A stretch of 35,294 nucleotides of DNA from an uncultured Candidatus Saccharibacteria bacterium (GTDB lineage Bacteria; Patescibacteriota; Saccharimonadia; Saccharimonadales; Saccharimonadaceae): contig CAUPTC010000001.1 in NCBI GenBank assembly GCA_963514175.1, forward strand, positions 1 to 35,294, written 5' to 3'. The notes beneath the pieces are model-generated. The model did not search any database. It worked only from the letters and a program-made list of their open reading frames with translations, and was not told where the DNA came from. This document shows, piece after piece, positions 5,660 through 27,276 of this stretch. The translations under genes were made by a program, and so were the position numbers. Positions within the stretch are counted from its first letter, which is position 1, and each line of letters starts with the position of its first letter.

Positions 5660-5871
5660 GTAATAGTCCTCCGTTATTTTGTTGAATGTAATTACATACT
5701 TTTCTAAATCCAGCGATATATTTATTAGCTTTGTCGCACAGCCCTACCTAATCTCCAAGCAAAACGAGCAGTGCTGTGCTTGTAGTATCATGAAAAACCA
5801 AACAGATAGTGCTACTCATAACCATAATAACACCATATGTCAGCGCTGGATATGTTAAAATTACGGTAGTT

Positions 5872-6360: not shown

Positions 6361-7070
6361 ACGCTCTTTTTGTTTGATTTACTGCCGGATTTTGGTGTAG
6401 TCTTAGTGCTTTTCTTAGTCCTGCCGATCTTCGGCTTAGCAGATTCCGTTCCTGTTTGGCCGGTCGGCTTGGCGTCGTGTTCTGCTTGGTTGGTAGTATC
6501 TGTTTGCGACTTAGGCTCTCCATCTTCGCCGTGGCCGGTTGAGATGCGACTGAGCCAACGCTCTGTATGGCGGTGCTTGGCGATGCGTAGTCCGACCATC
6601 CCGATAATGATGGGTACAATACCGGTTGCGGCAATGCTGCCGGAGGCAAAGATGGTTTGGCGAAGCGTCTTCTTGCCCGAGTTCTGGTGATCGGGCAGAT
6701 AAGCGTTATTGGCGGGGTGATTCGGGTCGTACTTGATCTTGACTAACTGTCCACTATGGAGGCGACATTTATCGGTGGTTGGTTCGCCGCGATAGCCCAG
6801 GATAGCGGTATACTCATCGCCTTTGATCCGAAAGTGATAATCTACCTGGCAAGCCTGATTGTTGCGACCACGTTCGTCGTCGCCGATACCGGTTATCTTA
6901 TTCACACTGATTACCCGGGCATTCGTCTCCTTGGTGCGTCTGGTCGAGGCTTGGTATTGCCAGATGGTGACGACGGACAGCAGTAAAGTAGCCAGCCCGA
7001 TCAAGATCAAGATCTGGCAAGCGGGACGAAACATTATCCCGATGAGGCGACGGCTGGTGCTGTGCGTCAC
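6357..7070 (-). CDS. DUF3592-like membrane protein (TM, beta-rich domain, TM, Lys-rich tail)
   Basis: Two hydrophobic helices flank VDYHFRIKGDEY...VKIKYDPNHPANN, the DUF3592 pattern. Confidence 0.7.
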   Translation of the reverse strand: MTHSTSRRLIGIMFRPACQILILIGLATLLLSVVTIWQYQASTRRTKETNARVISVNKITGIGDDERGRNNQACQVDYHFRIKGDEYTAILGYRGEPTTDKCRLHSGQLVKIKYDPNHPANNAYLPDHQNSGKKTLRQTIFASGSIAATGIVPIIIGMVGLRIAKHRHTERWLSRISTGHGEDGEPKSQTDTTNQAEHDAKPTGQTGTESAKPKIGRTKKSTKTTPKSGSKSNKKSV

Positions 7071-7742: not shown

Positions 7743-8285
7743 TCATAAGTTTTCAAACTTCAGCTCGGCGATCTTTTTGATATCCATGCCTATTTTTCTA
7801 TATAGCTCTGCGGTATTCTCTGCCACCAGAGTTTGCTCGGAGTAGCCAAGGCGAGAGGCGGTTGCTATCACCTCGGCCGAGTTGGTCGCTTCTATCTCGA
7901 CGTATGGTTCCAGCTTTGGCCAGCTGTCAATAGCGACCTGGACGCCGTCTAACTGATATTCTTCACGCTTGTTCTCTTGATAGCCCCGTGGCTTTATACC
8001 GATCTTCTCTAATATTTTGAGAGTAGTGGCGAGATCTGACACTGTAACTTCCCATTCATTAGTGCCATCTATGGTATTACTATTTATCTTTTTGACTGTT
8101 AACGTGGTGGACTTGCCATCTGATCGGAGGCGCACCCAACGGTCCGGCGATGCCGGTATGGTGTCAAAGACGTAACGTCGAAAGTGATAATCACCAACCT
8201 TGGTTGCACCGATTTTCTTGAGCCTGCGCCGAATCATCACCGGATTAATATTTGTAATCTTTGCCTCGTGCTCTATATCTGGCAT
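7743..8285 (-). CDS. CYTH-domain protein (class IV adenylate cyclase-like)
   Basis: IEHEAK (ExExK), WVRLR, LTVK, YQENKREEY, IDSWP, YVEIE. Confidence 0.85.
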   Translation of the reverse strand: MPDIEHEAKITNINPVMIRRRLKKIGATKVGDYHFRRYVFDTIPASPDRWVRLRSDGKSTTLTVKKINSNTIDGTNEWEVTVSDLATTLKILEKIGIKPRGYQENKREEYQLDGVQVAIDSWPKLEPYVEIEATNSAEVIATASRLGYSEQTLVAENTAELYRKIGMDIKKIAELKFENL

Positions 8286-23036: not shown

Positions 23037-25085
23037 CTAGTGAGAATGAGCACCGGCTAGCTTGGCCGAATCGGGTCGGTGCTTGGCTCGGTATGACATG
23101 GCGAAGGCCAGTAAAGATAGGCTGATCACCAAGGTGGCGGTCATGTAGATGTACGAGACGGTAACTGACGACTCGGTGATACCGCCGGCGATGGCGGAGC
23201 GAATGGTGGTCAGCGAGTATGCCATGGGGACTACTTGGTGAAGAGCTTGATATAGCCCCGGCGAGGTCTCGATCGGGAAAGTGCCGCCGGCTGAGCCGAG
23301 CGATAGAATCATGATCACCATACCGATGAAGCGTCCGATATTACCCATCGATATGGCGAGGAAGAGATTGAGGAACATCATGGCATTAGCATAGAGGATA
23401 AGGATAGCGTAGAAGCGGACGGGGTTAGTCAAGTGAAAGCCGACTCCCTGCATGATCACTCCCATGATCAGTGCCATAGCGGTGGCAACGCCGGCACCGA
23501 TGGTGACCTTGCTGAGATACCAGCCTCGCCAACTACCCTGCCGGTCAGCTTTACGCTCTACCGGGTAGATTGAGCAGAAGACCAAACAACCGACGAAGAT
23601 AGCGACCGAGAAGAAGTACGGCGCCAGGCCGTGGGCGTAGTTAGGAACCTGACTCCGACGCTGATGCTCCAGGGAGACCGGCTGACTAATCTGGCGAGCG
23701 GTTTTACCGGATAGCGGTGTCTTGGCGACGGTGTCGGCGCCGGATTGTAGCTTAGCCCGGAGCAGTTCGCTGCTGTCGACTAATTGATTCGCCCCGTTTG
23801 CCAGCTGATTTACGCCGCTCTTGAGCGTCGGTATGTTGGCGTCCAGTCGGGTAATGCTGCTATTTAGCTGGCTCGCCCCATTCGCCAGCTGGTGAAGTTT
23901 TGCCCTGGTCAAGGGGCTATTGAGCTGATCACTAGTCCGGTGGAGCTGACTTGCCAAGCGGTTGGTGCCGTCGGCTAGTTGGTTAGCACCTTGGGCTAGC
24001 CGGTCAAGTCCATTAGTCAGTTTAGTGAAATGGTTGGTAGCGGTTTGAACATCCGGCAATTGAGCCAGGCTAGCTTGGAGCTTGGTCAAGTCTAGCTGCG
24101 CTAAGGCTTTGGCGGACCGGGTGAACTGAGGGTTGCTACCACTCTGCGCCTTCCTGGCTATGGCTAACCGGATATCGGGGTCGCTTAGGACGGTGCCGAT
24201 ATGACCAAGGCTGCTGCCGGCGGTCGTCTTGAGCTGATCCAGCCCGGTGAGGCTGCTACCTAGTCCGTTTAGTTCCGCCTTGGTCTGCTGATCGGCTAGC
24301 TGAAGAGACTTGGCGAGGCTGCTGGCGCCGTTATTCAGCTGATCAAGCTGAGGCAAAGATGCTTTCATACCTGTGCCTAGGTCTAAAGTCTGATTAGCCA
24401 ACCGGTCTACTCCATTAGCTAGATCGGCCGAGCCGCTAGCCAGCTGATGAGAGCCTTTAGCAAGGGTGTCAGTGCCATTAGACAGTCGGACTAGCCCATC
24501 CGACAGCTTGTCTGCCCCGCTGCTCAGCTCGCCTGCCCCGGCGGAAGCGGTCTGAAGCCCTTGTCCGGATTGCTTGATAATATCTATCAGAGCGTTGGCA
24601 TAGGTAGTGGTAATCTCGGCGGAGATCTGCGACTTGATCCGGCTGACTGCCGTACTCGCTACCGTCTCGATCGGGTAATTAAGCGAAGCGTTAGTCTGAT
24701 AACGGAGCTTTAATTGCTGCGGGTCAAGCTGAGTAACGGTCGTGGCGTTATGGGAAAAGTCGGTCGGGATGGTCACCGACAGGTAGTATTTATTATCCTT
24801 CATCCCCTGCTTTGCCTCGTCCTCGTCAACGAACTGCCAGTCGAAGGTGTGGTTACGGTGCAGGCTATCGACCACCTTTTGCCCCAGGTTCATCGTCTTG
24901 CCTTGGTACGACACCGGCCGGTCTTGATTGACTACGGCAACCTTGAGCTGATCCAAGTGGCTATATGGATCCCAGATGCCTTTCAGGAAAACTACGGCAT
25001 ACAGCACCGGGATACAACAAATAGCGATGGTGGTGACCAGCAACATCTTGCTCTGTCGGATGTTCTTGAACTCTGCCTTAATCAT
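23037..25085 (-). CDS. YhgE/Pip family membrane protein
   Basis: WDPY..LKVAVVNQD N-terminal YhgE motif, x-x-x-L-x-x-G heptad repeats, VPNYAHGLAPYF, SAGGTFPIE, C-terminal TMs; start at ATG 25085 after SD AAGGAGGT. Confidence 0.92.
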   Translation of the reverse strand: MIKAEFKNIRQSKMLLVTTIAICCIPVLYAVVFLKGIWDPYSHLDQLKVAVVNQDRPVSYQGKTMNLGQKVVDSLHRNHTFDWQFVDEDEAKQGMKDNKYYLSVTIPTDFSHNATTVTQLDPQQLKLRYQTNASLNYPIETVASTAVSRIKSQISAEITTTYANALIDIIKQSGQGLQTASAGAGELSSGADKLSDGLVRLSNGTDTLAKGSHQLASGSADLANGVDRLANQTLDLGTGMKASLPQLDQLNNGASSLAKSLQLADQQTKAELNGLGSSLTGLDQLKTTAGSSLGHIGTVLSDPDIRLAIARKAQSGSNPQFTRSAKALAQLDLTKLQASLAQLPDVQTATNHFTKLTNGLDRLAQGANQLADGTNRLASQLHRTSDQLNSPLTRAKLHQLANGASQLNSSITRLDANIPTLKSGVNQLANGANQLVDSSELLRAKLQSGADTVAKTPLSGKTARQISQPVSLEHQRRSQVPNYAHGLAPYFFSVAIFVGCLVFCSIYPVERKADRQGSWRGWYLSKVTIGAGVATAMALIMGVIMQGVGFHLTNPVRFYAILILYANAMMFLNLFLAISMGNIGRFIGMVIMILSLGSAGGTFPIETSPGLYQALHQVVPMAYSLTTIRSAIAGGITESSVTVSYIYMTATLVISLSLLAFAMSYRAKHRPDSAKLAGAHSH

Positions 25086-25617
25086 CTGTGACCTCCTTTT
25101 GGTTAATGGTGAAGATAGCATTGGTCTCGACGCCGGGGTCGTTCCAGTCCAGCTGAGGCAAATGGCGATGTGACGAAATAACTCGGTCGATGATATCGCC
25201 GATATTTACTTCGCTCAGCACCTGTCGCCAGACGGCATCAGCGGTCATGAAGATACGGTGTACCGCCTGGTCGGCTGTAGTTATGGCTTGGTGAGCGTTG
25301 GTGTCGGTTTGGCTGGCAAAGATAGCGCTAAAGAGCCCCGTACTGGGAAAGCTGTCTACCCTGCCCTCCAGCGCTTCGACCACCTCCAGGATGGAGATCT
25401 GCCCGACGGGACGAGCCAGAGTGAACCCACCACTATTCCCCGGCACTGATTTGACGATACCGGCGACGACCAGCTTGCGCAGTAACTTCTGGCTATAAGT
25501 CATAGACGTCGGCAGGCGTCGCTGTAGAGTGCGAGATGAGACGGGAATAGCCTTAGCCTGAGTGGCGAGGATTGCCATCAGACAGACTCCCTGCTCAAAG
25601 CTCTTAGTTAGCTTCAT
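25078..25617 (-). CDS. Rrf2 family transcriptional regulator
   Basis: YSQKLLRKLVVAGIVKSVPGNSGGFTLARP..ISILEVVEALEG winged-helix signature; SD GGGAGG. Confidence 0.92.
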   Translation of the reverse strand: MKLTKSFEQGVCLMAILATQAKAIPVSSRTLQRRLPTSMTYSQKLLRKLVVAGIVKSVPGNSGGFTLARPVGQISILEVVEALEGRVDSFPSTGLFSAIFASQTDTNAHQAITTADQAVHRIFMTADAVWRQVLSEVNIGDIIDRVISSHRHLPQLDWNDPGVETNAIFTINQKEVTDD

Positions 25618-25641
25618 GTGGCCTCCCTAGCTGATATCCAA

Positions 25642-25684
25642 TATCCATCGTGGATAAAATATATCTATAATGAAAAATAGTCAA
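25642..25684 (-). promoter_or_regulatory. Promoter and palindromic operator of the rrf2-yhgE operon
   Basis: Minus strand TTGACT (25684-25679), 17 nt, TATTTT. It overlaps the imperfect palindrome GTGGATA-aaata-TATCTAT (25650-25668) and adjoins TATCCA-tcg-TGGATA (25642-25656). Confidence 0.65.
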
Positions 25685-25737
25685 GGGTATGCTAACTATT
25701 ATTGATACATGTAGCCAACGTCAATGTAGGGAGCTAC

Positions 25738-25766
25738 TTGACAAAATAAGGATAGAGTGTTATAAA
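25738..25766 (+). promoter_or_regulatory. Near-consensus sigma70 promoter
   Basis: TTGACA (25738-25743), 17 nt ending in TGt, TATAAA (25761-25766). Confidence 0.8.
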
Positions 25767-25776
25767 TGAACACTAT

Positions 25777-26269
25777 CAGGTTGCATGCGAGAAAAGCTCG
25801 TATGACCTGCGTTCTTTGGAGGAAATATGTATGATATGGAAGAGTGTGTGTCGTTTAGAACGTTAAATATTGGCTACGAGCTCCAGGGAGCTCGTAGCCA
25901 GCTAGAGCAGGCGCTTGAAAGCGCCCGCTCGGTAGCAGGTGCTTGTCTCGAGGACTCGCTTGAGCGAGCCCTCGAGAGTATCGAGAAAGCAGAGCAACAT
26001 TGGTTTGCTCTGCAGAGAGAGACTCGGAGCAGCGGTGACAACCGTTGCTCCGAGATGAACGGCTCCTCCTCTAAAGAGGAGGAGCTAGTCCTTGTATCCC
26101 CTGTTCAGGGGGTACAAAGGGACGGTCACCTGATTCTAGGCGACCCCAAGCTCTTGAGAGCTGACACTCTCAAGAGCTAGCACTACCCCGGCAAGTCGGC
26201 GTATGTATTTTGTACGCCGGCTCGCCGGCATCTCTATCCACCCTCCACCCCCTACTTACGAGTAGGGGG
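25777..26269 (+). other. Array of 12 hairpins (structured mRNA or ncRNA candidate)
   Basis: Inverted repeats read directly at 25777-25809, 25871-25900, 25905-25930, 25946-25977, 25989-26013, 26023-26054, 26062-26085, 26088-26123, 26124-26145, 26149-26178, 26188-26228 and 26248-26269. Confidence 0.85.
25827..26180 (+). CDS. Hypothetical 117-aa protein encoded within the hairpin array
   Basis: SD GGAGGA (25818-25823) with its own promoter and terminator; N-terminal half looks like an amphipathic helix. No recognisable family, so the ORF may be secondary to the RNA structure. Confidence 0.5.
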   Translation: MYDMEECVSFRTLNIGYELQGARSQLEQALESARSVAGACLEDSLERALESIEKAEQHWFALQRETRSSGDNRCSEMNGSSSKEEELVLVSPVQGVQRDGHLILGDPKLLRADTLKS

Positions 26270-26282
26270 ATTTTCCTTTTTT
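26248..26282 (+). terminator. Intrinsic terminator
   Basis: CCCCCTACT-tacg-AGTAGGGGG followed by ATTTTCCTTTTTT. Confidence 0.8.
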
Positions 26283-26320
26283 ACCGACCTCGGAATGGTG
26301 TATAATCTTATTAGCTTTAC

Positions 26321-26395
26321 TGGGATGTCGCCAAGTGGTAAGGCATCAGGTTTTGGTCCTGACATTCGGGGGTTCGAATCCCTCCATCCCAACCA
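26321..26395 (+). tRNA. tRNA-Gln(UUG), CCA encoded
   Basis: Acceptor stem TGGGATG/CATCCCA, D arm GCCAAGTGGTAAGGC, anticodon stem TCAGG/CCTGA with loop TTTTGGT (anticodon TTG), T loop GGTTCGAATCC; TATAAT at 26301. Confidence 0.97.
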
Positions 26396-26439
26396 AAGCT
26401 TATTTTGTTGCCCCACTATGTAACTTTTAAGGAGAAGAT

Positions 26440-27276
26440 ATGGCAGATGACTTAGTTTTCGTACTATTTCGATTGACGGTCGATAGAATGCGGGGAGCGG
26501 TAAGCGCCGGCTCAGGATATATCATTAAGCGAAGCCAAGTGGCTAGCTATCTAGATCAAATTACCGACGAGCTGGAGTCTCGCCGGGTCAGTAAAGAGCT
26601 GACGCTGAAGAAGCATAGCGACGATGTCTATGCCTACGAGCTGAAGAAGCCGACTAAGACTATCTTCGTTCGCATCATGCCGACCGCTGACATATCTTAT
26701 CGCATCGGCACGATTAATGAGAAAGGACAGCTGGTTGATGCGGCGAAGACGGATAGCTACCCCGCTGCCGTCAAGTGGATACAGGGGCACGAGGCGTCAG
26801 ATCCATCTCGCCATTATCAGCTAGTGGCTAGCCTGCCCAATGTCGAGATCCCGGTCATAGTTAGCGATGTGCTGGAGCAGATCAAGTCGGGCGAGAATAA
26901 TATCTTCGTAGCGAAAGCCGGCCATCTCGGCAAGGTTAACCGGATTGATGACCCGAACGGTAAGAAGAAAGCTAACAAGAGCTGGCTGGGTAAAGTCTTG
27001 GAGACAAACAAGGCAGGGCGGATCATCTTCTACATCGGGCTGATTCCGTTTATCCTGTGCGGCATAGACGCCTTGATGTCAATGGTCTTTAGCGATGGCG
27101 GACGTCATCGAGTCAATGTGATTCTTTATCTTATCTGGGCGGTGACCAAGCCTGTCGTGACTGATTATGGTCAGTGGCTATTGCCTGTCTCTATCGTGCT
27201 GGTGCTGGGTGGCTTTAGCTCTTGCCTGAATAGTTACCTGTCTGACAAGAAGAAGACGAAGCAAGCAGACCGCTAG
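26440..27276 (+). CDS. Hypothetical membrane protein (soluble N-terminal domain, 2-3 C-terminal hydrophobic segments)
   Basis: 278-aa ORF with SD AAGGAGA; hydrophobic IIFYIGLIPFILCG and WLLPVSIVLVLGGF. Confidence 0.75.
   Translation: MADDLVFVLFRLTVDRMRGAVSAGSGYIIKRSQVASYLDQITDELESRRVSKELTLKKHSDDVYAYELKKPTKTIFVRIMPTADISYRIGTINEKGQLVDAAKTDSYPAAVKWIQGHEASDPSRHYQLVASLPNVEIPVIVSDVLEQIKSGENNIFVAKAGHLGKVNRIDDPNGKKKANKSWLGKVLETNKAGRIIFYIGLIPFILCGIDALMSMVFSDGGRHRVNVILYLIWAVTKPVVTDYGQWLLPVSIVLVLGGFSSCLNSYLSDKKKTKQADR

Follow-up and report, generated by a model that had tools for sequence, protein, structure and literature searches.

RNA structure within bacterial coding regions is generally regarded as weak and local, with the protein taking precedence. 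Stable hairpins are a feature of several other systems. At the 5' terminus or the 3' end of a message they stabilize mRNAs, as in the ompA 5' UTR, the Bacillus aprE and ermC leaders and the REP elements that follow genes. The mRNAs of type I toxins (hok-like) are compactly folded and long-lived, RNAs of the CsrB/RsmZ type are sponges made of hairpin arrays, and the GOLLD and ROOL class consists of large, ornate non-coding RNAs, often located beside tRNA genes. Finally, RNA viruses and RNA phages have ordered RNA structure on the scale of the genome, with packaging hairpins and recognition signals dispersed through their coding regions.

The locus described here lies at positions 25738–26282 of a 35,294-nucleotide stretch of DNA, hereafter the window, from an uncultured Candidatus Saccharibacteria bacterium (assembly GCA_963514175.1, contig CAUPTC010000001.1; genome of 0.74 Mb, 91% complete). 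Over ~0.5 kb it lines up a promoter, a leader hairpin at the 5' terminus, a Shine-Dalgarno sequence, a 117-codon open reading frame (ORF), a 3' hairpin and a terminator (Table 1). The unit is a real protein gene and a conserved RNA structure at once. Its ORF evolves as a coding sequence does, its stems are maintained through covariation, sometimes with amino-acid changes as the price, and their pairing follows the rules of a + strand RNA. It is a member of a genus-restricted set of about 5–14 per genome, with promoter, leader and terminator modules in common, and most of these units encode small orphan proteins in hairpin-saturated mRNAs. In the literature covered by full-text searches, other papers being represented mostly by listings or abstracts, no account of such genes was found; a tandem-repeat gene in a Gracilibacterium (PMC6851277) is unrelated to them.

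Table 1. Parts of the unit and its downstream neighbour, in window positions. Percentages are paired cells; two-sided, pairs changed on both sides.
Feature	Coordinates	Strand	Description	Helix, pairing and changes
Sigma-70-type promoter	25738..25766	+	TTGACA (25738), 17-nt spacer ending TGT (extended -10), TATAAA (25761); read from sequence	
5' leader hairpin	25777..25809	+	5-bp outer stem, 2-nt bulge, 8-bp inner stem, 5-nt loop; fold	Helix 1: 13 pairs, 98.8%, 7 two-sided
Shine-Dalgarno GGAGG	25818..25822	+	5 nt upstream of ATG	
CDS, 117-aa orphan protein	25827..26180	+	117 codons, GGAGG 5 nt upstream	
CDS hairpin 1	25871..25900	+	14-nt arms, 100% complementary	Helix 4: 96.8%
CDS hairpin 2	25901..25935	+		Helix 5: 92.3%, 2 two-sided
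CDS hairpin 3	25938..25982	+	Core 25946-25977 plus outer helix	Helices 6, 7: 80%, 88.5%, 4 two-sided
CDS hairpin 4	25989..26013	+		Helix 8: 98.3%, 2 two-sided
CDS hairpin 5	26023..26054	+		Helices 9 and 10: 5 two-sided
CDS hairpin 6	26062..26085	+		Helix 11: 99.3%
CDS hairpin 7	26087..26121	+		Helix 12: 86.6%, 2 two-sided
CDS hairpin 8	26124..26145	+	Fold	Helix 14: 96.9%, one-sided changes only
CDS hairpin 9	26149..26178	+		Helix 15: 98.7%, 3 two-sided
3' UTR hairpin	26188..26228	+	Inverted repeat	Helix 16: 96.3%
Intrinsic terminator	26248..26282	+	9-bp G+C-rich stem (26248-26269), then T-run; listed by scan	Helix 17: 99.3%, 1 two-sided, in 11 rows
tRNA-Gln (UUG)	26321..26395	+	Neighbour with own TATAAT box; outside unit	

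Like the end stabilizers, the unit has a monocistronic message that carries hairpins a few nucleotides from its 5' terminus and at its 3' end, with a presumed block to end-dependent RNases. However, nine covarying stems here fill the coding region, even at the price of amino-acid changes, and unlike the REP elements found after genes they are unique sequences rather than copies of a repeat family. As in RNA viruses and phages, conserved local stem-loops saturate the coding sequence, which carries a double constraint of protein and RNA, but this is a cellular chromosomal gene, fixed beside tRNA-Gln (28/32 loci), with no phage or plasmid similarity and no motif common to the loops. With the hok-like mRNAs it shares a small stand-alone format and a very stable fold that would limit the message's own translation, whereas its product is a hydrophilic protein without a membrane helix, and its structure is a chain of local hairpins, not a long-range 5'-3' pairing. 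By its product the unit does not fit a type I toxin mRNA, the protein being 117 aa long and not a short hydrophobic membrane peptide. Many tandem hairpins in one transcript between promoter and terminator recall the CsrB/RsmZ sponges, but here the transcript is coding, no Rfam family matches it, and none of the 13 predicted loops, which vary in size and sequence and have no common motif, contains GGA; a Csr/Rsm-type sponge was rejected on the loops. A strongly structured element of about 0.5 kb that adjoins a tRNA gene in a host-associated bacterium is also reminiscent of GOLLD and ROOL. In contrast to these, the hairpins are simple and serial, without multistem junctions, the ORF is under coding selection, and 0 of 4227 Rfam models match the unit at E up to 1.

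The locus had been singled out from its letters alone, in what we call the original prediction, as a TTGACA-17-TATAAA promoter followed by a hairpin array, nine hairpins of which lie inside a Shine-Dalgarno-led ORF of 117 codons, and by a terminator. All of these parts were recovered, the promoter by direct reading, the terminator by the scan and the array as 11 inverted repeats in 25700–26320, at the coordinates predicted, with arms of 9–16 nt, 88–100% complementary and 2–9 nt apart. Five of the repeats, with just 2 nt separating the arms, are near-perfect DNA palindromes. The promoter is missing from the promoter scan list because the scan rule requires a T at the end of the -10 hexamer and TATAAA ends in A. 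Its -35 hexamer, a GTGTTA stretch and the -10 position are all conserved among orthologues, and the other leader units are preceded by the same promoter type. The leader hairpin starts about 3–5 nt past the expected transcription start. In the predicted fold the ORF begins with 44 nt that are nearly open and weakly structured, the first strong stem (CDS hairpin 1) beginning 44 nt past the A of the ATG; stems take up about 70% of the coding nucleotides overall, and the 3' arm of CDS hairpin 9 overlaps the TAG stop codon (26178–26180). The 3' UTR hairpin opens a 3' module that is common to other units and recurs in the genus. At the 28 orthologous loci where the tRNA-Gln gene is the neighbour, it lies about 30 nt downstream; the link between the two is positional only.

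Folding of the interval 25770–26285 gave -277 kcal/mol for the + strand, against -174.7 +/- 6.5 for dinucleotide shuffles (z -15.7, 0/100 as good), and z -14.8 for the - strand. With synonymous-codon shuffles of the CDS, z was -11.1 (native -199.7; mean of 100 shuffles -126.8, best -148.6), while three sister units ranged from -10.7 to -14.4 and a control gene gave -2.7. Both shuffling tests, which had been proposed together with the prediction, bear out the observation. Locally, the CDS folds at -0.551 kcal/mol/nt, versus a genome background (400 random windows of 400 nt) with a mean of -0.252, a standard deviation of 0.047 and an extreme of -0.373 kcal/mol/nt. When hairpin-dense regions were located by an exact-stem scan of the source genome, this was the one dense region on its contig, so the claim that no other gene in the window has a comparable hairpin density holds; five more were found in the rest of the genome. 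The 78 hairpins of five units have a median of 12 pairs, with a longest uninterrupted run of 16, and 41 of them are closed by tetraloops. Between 25738 and 26290 there are 0 direct-repeat families and 0 tandem repeats, and the stems are unrelated in sequence. This rules out both REP/BIME repeated palindromes and a CRISPR array, as had been anticipated.

The reading frame is retained in 31 of 33 aligned orthologue rows, 24 of them with 113–123 aa and 7 with 79 aa; 1-nt frameshifts in G-runs, in 2/33 rows, may be assembly errors or real. Six indel events were counted in the ORF, all multiples of three (+9, -12, +3, +9, +3, +3). The median dN/dS was 0.30 (269/276 pairs, those with dS above 0.05), and the minimum number of changes per site was 0.43–0.47 at codon positions 1 and 2, versus 0.68 at paired and 1.03 at unpaired third positions. 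The ribosome-binding site and the ATG are invariant. In a second unit, aligned over 14 species (alignment A3), the ORF is open in 14/14 rows. The unit thus has the general properties of protein-coding sequence, namely a kept frame, in-frame indels, an excess of third-position changes and a dN/dS below 1.

The 117-aa product is predicted to comprise a helical hairpin (residues 10–71) and a small beta domain (residues 87–111) joined by a disordered linker, the beta domain being modelled by AlphaFold2 with a pLDDT of about 90. This C-terminal domain is common to a paralogue on contig 24, and the 146 related protein clusters are all unnamed. The best Pfam-A scores, 13–14 bits, fall below cut-offs of 26–28; NCBIfam and PHROGs gave no match, and PADLOC (best 13.8 bits, E 0.006) no fitting family. 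A protein-language-model search of the ESM Atlas returned only chance-level scores of 0.80. For the predicted model, Foldseek against the PDB had a best E of 0.22 and none at E up to 0.001, and VIA-align a best Z of 9.1, to generic helical hairpins, where ~13 is expected by chance for helical models. At the RNA level, Rfam 15 (4227 models) matched the tRNA alone in 25000–27000 at E up to 1, and gave no match in 11.6 kb from six sister loci at E up to 0.1. The unit therefore belongs, as first suspected, to no named family in Rfam, Pfam, NCBIfam, PHROG or PADLOC. A toxin-like or host-directed role, also suggested at the outset, found no support, with no family match and a hydrophilic protein. 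Phage and plasmid records showed no DNA similarity, hence a mobile-element origin is not supported.

Conservation of the stems was measured on 33 orthologue rows and 166 pairs (alignment A1), the control being the same count with the partner slid. In A1, 94.0% of stem cells pair, versus 36.9–48.5% with a slid partner; 31 pairs changed on both sides, versus 2–8, in 144 cells versus 2–19; and the covariation score was 0.152, versus 0.033–0.045. In A3, 89.3% of the cells are paired versus 40–46% for slid partners, and 50 pairs changed on both sides versus 8–16. Relative to slid and shuffled controls these are the properties of a conserved structured RNA, on counts that ignore the tree; the cell counts overstate the number of events, because the sequences are related, and so not independent, and species have evidently recombined. 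A test of covariation versus dN/dS had originally been proposed, and both constraints are seen.

The protein yields in places. In CDS hairpin 1, a synonymous change from GGC to GGA or GGT is matched in 3 rows by AGC to ATC or AAC (Ser to Ile or Asn); the same pair is unpaired in 5 rows. In the second unit, stretches of peptide differ wholly between species and the hairpin stays at the same place. A 67-nt deletion allele, which encodes the 79-aa form (10 sequences), removes CDS hairpins 6 and 7, and the two former coding hairpins persist in it, now in the 3' UTR. They show no two-sided change, and 2 of the 10 sequences have one pair-breaking change each, with little divergence overall.

The strand on which the stems are selected can be read from their imperfect pairs. 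On the + strand of the window unit, G-U cells outnumber A-C cells 627 to 145, or 287 to 127 if only pairs that are Watson-Crick in the window are taken and the other rows counted; the second unit gave 194 versus 87. This excess of about 2.2- to 4.3-fold indicates that the sense RNA, and not the DNA, is what selection acts on, and agrees with the + strand RNA that had been proposed from the G-U pairs of several stems.

A covariance model of the leader (R1) found 9 matches in the source genome, 5 of them followed by hairpin-saturated ORFs whose orphan proteins are unrelated or paralogous. Small proteins of sister units carry the motif ALExG..V.L.G...EGG. The genome scan for sister units that the original prediction had suggested was thereby carried out, with a positive result. 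In all nine units the leader hairpin stands directly ahead of the ribosome-binding site, and in several sister units GGAGG lies inside a short C-rich/G-rich mini-hairpin. In the window unit a weak 5-bp mini-hairpin (25812–25824; helix 2, 96% paired) may partly enclose this site; the mini-hairpin is not demonstrated, since no pair changed on both sides. Elsewhere in the genus, 66 of 81 genomes have 5–14 copies of the leader, versus 0 of 150 genomes from other genera of the order. Two of the other genomes have 18 ORFs of 49 aa or more after leaders, of which 11 fold below the extreme of the source-genome background, 5 are intermediate and 2 ordinary.

The leader does not dictate hairpins, because two genes that bear it have ordinary structure, a radical SAM gene (-0.199 kcal/mol/nt) and a 236-aa gene on contig 24 (-0.286); an ORF on contig 29 is ordinary as well (also -0.286). 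As further evidence of coding, the protein of the hairpin-saturated contig-12 gene is homologous (32% identity, E 2e-26) to that of a gene with normal structure and the same leader. The radical SAM gene raised ideas of peptide maturation or of viperin-like defence, from which no conclusion was drawn; its scores are far below every curated cut-off (MoaA, 99.8 versus 325; viperin, 52 versus 180). The motif of a flanking inverted repeat on contig 24 is absent from the window. The promoter-leader motif identifies a regulon of orphan proteins that is specific to the genus.

As to function, we consider it about an even chance that this stand-alone coding unit has an "armoured", long-lived mRNA that is translated slowly or conditionally, the stability and the slow translation being what we infer from the arrangement of the stems. 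Four sequencing runs yielded short contig pieces alone (6, 1, 2 and 1), with the unit spanned by none of them, and so speak neither for nor against transcription. The decay enzymes found in the genome are RNase III, RNase Y and RNase J; no RNase R/II (RNB) domain was found in the 91%-complete assembly. The leader hairpin, only a few nucleotides inside the 5' end, would hinder 5'-end-dependent attack, for which RNase J is encoded, near-continuous stems would leave the endonuclease RNase Y few single-stranded sites, and the two 3' hairpins would stop 3' exonucleases. RNase III prefers roughly two helical turns, and stems of 16 or fewer uninterrupted pairs would be under that length. The weakly structured beginning of the ORF would let ribosomes start, and each would then have nine stable stems to melt. 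The outcome would be a long-lived message translated slowly or only upon a trigger, which would suit an energy-poor epibiont that makes these proteins when transcription is limited. Evasion of Rho was a further idea, abandoned since the 91%-complete genome yielded no Rho RNA-binding domain. Among the roles first listed for the locus, the nuclease-resistant mRNA remains in the lead together with a dual-function RNA, both as inferred roles.

That second role, which we hold to be rather unlikely, would have the RNA translated and its hairpin array do a job of its own besides, as a sponge or scaffold for a protein that binds double strands or hairpins, as a small-RNA precursor, or as packaging or recognition signals. 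It would account for stems that are kept where the protein changes thereby, for the constant hairpin position over differing peptides in the second unit, and for the hairpins retained downstream of the new stop in the 79-aa allele. Several unrelated proteins share the hairpin saturation, which makes the RNA feature their common denominator. However, the window unit's loops have no common motif, so that a single binding protein would need to read shape only. Rfam gave no match, no gene for a partner protein lies next to the units, and the dN/dS together with the confident beta domain shows that the protein matters.

Unlikely, in our estimate, is that the structure mainly silences the message, with ribosome-binding site and ORF kept shut until they are opened by a helicase, by a factor that binds the leader or by a physical cue, and with stability secondary. 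The conserved leader hairpin directly before the ribosome-binding site in 9/9 units, the GGAGG mini-hairpins of several sister units and the DEAD-family helicase domains encoded by the genome are consistent with such masking. Against it, the mini-hairpin of the window unit is weak and lacks two-sided changes, the ORF is nearly open over its first 44 nt, stems of 12–16 G+C-rich pairs would be far too stable for a thermometer, and masking would need structure at the start alone, not over the whole ORF.

The arrays might also be DNA-level palindromes, that is cruciforms or single-strand DNA hairpins, or a neutral by-product of template switching between arms. Template switching in quasi-palindromes copies changes from arm to arm and mimics compensation, and such conversion would explain amino-acid-changing "compensation" without selection; moreover, the two strands fold about equally, and the arms of five inverted repeats are separated by just 2 nt. 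A DNA-level process should nevertheless treat G-U and A-C alike, whereas the + strand excess of G-U was found in two independent units. The arrays also start downstream of the transcription start, leave out the initial 44 nt of the ORF, stop at the terminator, always run in the sense of the ORF and, in the source genome, occur only behind one promoter-leader type. The DNA element selected to fold when single-stranded, one of the options first raised, is disfavoured by the G-U excess and the confinement of arrays to sense transcripts, and we regard DNA-level origins as improbable. Scarcely credible, finally, is a pure non-coding RNA with a chance ORF, the "large structured ncRNA" of the original prediction: the lack of a protein family and the chance-level language-model scores would fit it, but the ORF is under coding selection, with its frame kept in 31/33 and 14/14 rows, in-frame indels, codon periodicity with third positions varying most, a dN/dS of 0.30, an invariant ribosome-binding site and ATG, and a confidently modelled beta domain that is common to paralogues.

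Here a cellular gene family shows the reverse of the usual view of structure in coding regions, with stems kept across dozens of species and amino acids yielding. It offers a natural test case for the limits of mRNA structure compatible with translation, for the gain in stability and for the trade-off between RNA and protein constraints, and it resembles the computational design goal of highly structured therapeutic mRNAs. More doubtfully, the units may be lineage-specific "armoured messages" that store RNA, or RNAs that act or travel as RNA themselves. If so, coding sequences would have been rebuilt from hairpins, with proteins bent to fit and the RNA persisting as a store, one use of which would be to survive the epibiont's host-free or dormant phase without new transcription that it could not afford; alternatively, the RNA would be a protein-binding scaffold or a cargo that passes from cell to cell. 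In either case bacteria would express genes or use RNA in a way of which the literature searched yielded no description. The Saccharibacteria are a largely uncultured group whose biology is poorly known, and the promoter-leader motif provides a handle for finding the function of their genus-specific orphan proteins.

The hairpins recognised in the original prediction are genuine and lie far beyond chance expectation. The transcript, 516 nt long, has a folding energy of −277 kcal/mol, versus −174.7 +/− 6.5 kcal/mol for dinucleotide shuffles (z = −15.7; −14.8 for the reverse strand). Against synonymous-codon shuffles (n = 100), which hold protein and codon usage constant, the native ORF scored −199.7, compared with a shuffled mean of −126.8 and a best shuffled value of −148.6 (z = −11.1). 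Its local folding energy, −0.551 kcal/mol/nt, is below that of all 400 random 400-nt windows drawn from the same genome (0.74 Mb, 51% G+C, 70 contigs; mean −0.252, sd 0.047, lowest −0.373 kcal/mol/nt). A repeat search of the unit returned 11 inverted repeats with arms of 9–16 nt, 88–100% complementary, as expected for the proposed tandem hairpins. It returned no direct or tandem repeat, so no stem is a copy of another, again as first supposed. The promoter was likewise confirmed.

Features of the window unit and of the other leader-borne ORFs in the same genome
Feature	Position	Strand	Details
Promoter	25738 (TTGACA)	+	TTGACA, 17-nt spacer with terminal TGT, TATAAA; read from sequence
Leader hairpin	25777–25809	+	33 nt; begins about 3–5 nt past the expected start
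Ribosome-binding site	25818	+	GGAGG
Hairpin-saturated ORF, window	25827 (ATG)–26180	+	117 codons (117 aa)
3′ UTR hairpin	26188–26228	+	
Intrinsic terminator	26248–26282	+	terminator scan
tRNA-Gln	from 26321	+	downstream of the terminator
Hairpin-saturated ORF	contig 24		162 aa
Hairpin-saturated ORF	contig 4		182 aa
Hairpin-saturated ORF	contig 12		202 aa
Hairpin-saturated ORF	contig 11		67 aa
Leader-borne ORF, ordinary structure			56 aa
Leader-borne mini-ORF (MST..SDLRLAQI)	contig 15, 11919–12030 (L082)		13–14 codons (14 aa in this genome); overlaps a hairpin
Leader-borne gene, ordinary structure			236 aa; −0.286 kcal/mol/nt, synonymous-shuffle z = −2.7
Leader-borne radical SAM gene	contig 5, 20090–21030 (L083, 3091–4031)		290 aa; −0.199 kcal/mol/nt

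Upstream of the unit lie a divergent Rrf2-family regulator gene (25078–25617, minus strand; PF02082, E 2e-25) and a gene for a 694-aa ABC-2/YhgE-like membrane protein (23037–25121, minus strand); no connection of either to the hairpin unit was found.

Orthologues of the unit were aligned in 33 rows (32 distinct) representing 37 loci. A reading frame of 113–123 aa is kept in 24 of the 33 rows, 2 rows carry 1-nt changes in G-runs, and all remaining ORF indels except a 67-nt deletion (7 rows) are multiples of three. This deletion (26056–26122) takes out exactly two hairpins, 6 and 7, and the resulting frameshift runs into a stop, leaving a 79-aa product that consists of the helical hairpin alone. 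It was also seen in 3 of 18 metagenome loci (loci with the allele: L010, L011, L042–L046, L095–L097), and at least 21 of 120 listed protein clusters have the 79-aa form, with 93% average column identity. Among the 24 full-length rows, median dN was 0.12 and median dS 0.38, with a ratio of 0.30 (269 of 276 pairs, those with dS above 0.05). The minimum number of changes per site was 0.43–0.47 at codon positions 1 and 2, and at position 3 it was 0.68 for paired and 1.03 for unpaired sites, which indicates a coding signal together with a restraint on synonymous sites within stems. Of the options first listed for the unit, a nuclease-resistant mRNA and a dual-function RNA are the leading ones, and a pure non-coding RNA is disfavoured by the frames, the in-frame indels and the dN/dS ratio. 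AlphaFold2, run on a 56-sequence alignment, predicted long helices at residues 10–36 and 40–71, then a linker without order, and at 87–111 a beta domain of four strands whose pLDDT is about 90 (mean over the whole model 71, pTM 0.40). Fold searches with this model retrieved generic helical hairpins only.

Conservation of the stems was assessed by projecting the local hairpins of the window (166 pairs in 17 helices) onto the orthologue alignment, with partners slid by 1–3 columns and 500 shuffles as controls. Pairing was kept in 94.0% of cells (36.9–48.5% when slid), 31 pairs were altered on both sides (2–8 when slid), and the covariation score was 0.152 (0.033–0.045 when slid); none of the 500 shuffles equalled the observed pairing or score. 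Cells altered on both sides numbered 144 (2–19 when slid). A second unit, aligned from 14 species, behaved similarly: 89.3% paired versus 40–46%, both-side changes in 50 versus 8–16 pairs, and all 14 frames open (152–170 aa). In hairpin 1, three rows combine a silent GGC to GGA/GGT change with a Ser to Ile/Asn replacement on the opposite arm, and the same pair is unpaired in five rows; compensation in some cases costs the protein. All of these counts are of cells and not of independent events, in sequences that are visibly mosaic through recombination.

Two variants of the promoter-leader segment (25738–25810) occur among the orthologues, the second being of the type found in sister units, and 3′ segments too are shared in a mosaic pattern. 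This indicates recombination or gene conversion of modules among units and species.

A transition in a Watson-Crick pair is a priori as likely to give G-U as A-C, and a DNA palindrome should disfavour both. On the plus strand of the window unit, G-U exceeded A-C by 627 to 145, and by 287 to 127 in the other rows when the count was limited to positions that form Watson-Crick pairs in the window; in the second unit the counts were 194 and 87. Each array starts past the promoter, leaves the initial 44 nt of the ORF free and ends with the terminator, always in the same orientation as the ORF. This excess and this placement point to selection on the sense transcript, in line with the plus-strand RNA first suspected from the G-U pairs. 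Among sequencing runs searched for the stretch, none on record as RNA contained it, and contigs from the runs examined matched it in fragments only.

An exact-stem scan of the genome yielded six dense regions, built on a common plan of near-identical promoter, leader hairpin, ribosome-binding site, hairpin-packed ORF and related terminator. A covariance model (R1) of the leader alignment (A2) located nine leader copies, five of which precede hairpin-saturated ORFs, with folding energies of −0.41 to −0.60 kcal/mol/nt and, in the three tested, synonymous-shuffle z of −10.7 to −14.4. The contig-24 and window proteins have a C-terminal domain in common, and the 236-aa protein, whose gene has ordinary structure, shows 32% identity (E 2e-26) with the contig-12 protein. 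None of these proteins had a convincing match in Pfam, NCBIfam, PHROGs or PADLOC. The mini-ORF, which is kept at two loci of a second genome, G090 (L090 and L091), could represent either a leader peptide or a unit that has decayed.

The radical SAM gene has the same promoter and leader hairpin, yet its coding sequence is ordinary and A+T-rich; it is left without a class because its best scores (MoaA, 99.8 bits; viperin models, 52–57 bits) fall under the cut-offs of 325 and 180. Its neighbours include a toxin-antitoxin pair, judged Doc/Phd-like by inspection of the translations, and an rve integrase fragment (28.4 bits, Pfam cut-off 32.6). The contig-24 unit is flanked by a perfect inverted repeat of ~27 nt (contig positions ~5735–5761 and ~6641–6667; locus L077) and a further outer inverted pair (~5540 and 6715); these may mark the two ends of a small element that is mobile or invertible. 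The repeat motif also adjoins the contig-12 unit (near 8070) and is absent from the window.

Within the genus, 63 of the other 81 genomes contained DNA matching the window; none of 16 genomes from other families did. The leader model matched 66 of the 81, with 5–14 copies apiece (the remaining 15 had none), and 0 of 150 genomes from other genera of the order. In G090 and another genome, G077, 20 of 26 leader matches were inspected, and all 20 precede small orphan ORFs, many with the pattern ALExG..V.L.G...EGG. Of 18 such ORFs of at least 49 aa, 11 fold beyond the extreme of the window genome's background, 5 are between and 2 are ordinary. Tandem clusters comprise five units in G090 (contig 4, 10802–16098; L085) and four in G077 (contig 1, 27654–31465; L086). 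Their proteins are orphans of 61–95 aa, several with the pattern, whose carriers look like a lineage-specific small-protein family. The window protein has 146 related clusters in a large protein collection; among 120 listed, none had a Pfam domain or informative name, one being titled "hypothetical protein". Since tRNA-Gln lies ~30 nt past the unit in 28 of 32 orthologous loci, and searches of phage and plasmid records showed no similarity, the unit is a stable chromosomal gene.

As to the functional reason for the hairpins, we infer a role in mRNA decay and translation. In Gram-positive-type decay, a stem a few nt from the 5′ end hampers RNase J and 5′-end-dependent cleavage, RNase Y requires single-stranded sites, and 3′ exonucleases are halted by 3′ hairpins. 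The genome (91% complete) encodes RNase J, RNase Y and RNase III; neither an RNB-type exonuclease (RNase R/II) domain nor a Rho RNA-binding domain was found in it. Across the five units there are 78 hairpins, with a median of 12 pairs, uninterrupted runs of no more than 16 pairs, and tetraloops in 41; we take this to mean numerous short stems instead of extended duplexes open to RNase III cleavage. The leader stem would hamper RNase J and 5′-end-dependent cleavage, the array would leave RNase Y few single-stranded sites, and the 3′ hairpins would halt 3′ exonucleases. The open start region would let ribosomes load, and each would then have to melt stem after stem. Because of this enzyme set, the hairpin geometry and the open start, we favour "armoured" mRNAs that are long-lived and translated slowly or conditionally, a mechanism with about an even chance of being correct. 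An additional RNA-level job of the array is unlikely, and translational masking as the main purpose somewhat more so. A DNA-level origin of the stems, close to the DNA element of the original prediction, is very improbable given the G-U excess on the plus strand.

No published description of such hairpin-built genes was found in the literature searched. The feature is an mRNA that codes for a protein and on which a second, strong selection acts in favour of serial hairpins. The window unit belongs to a genus-specific set of Saccharibacteria genes marked by the leader.
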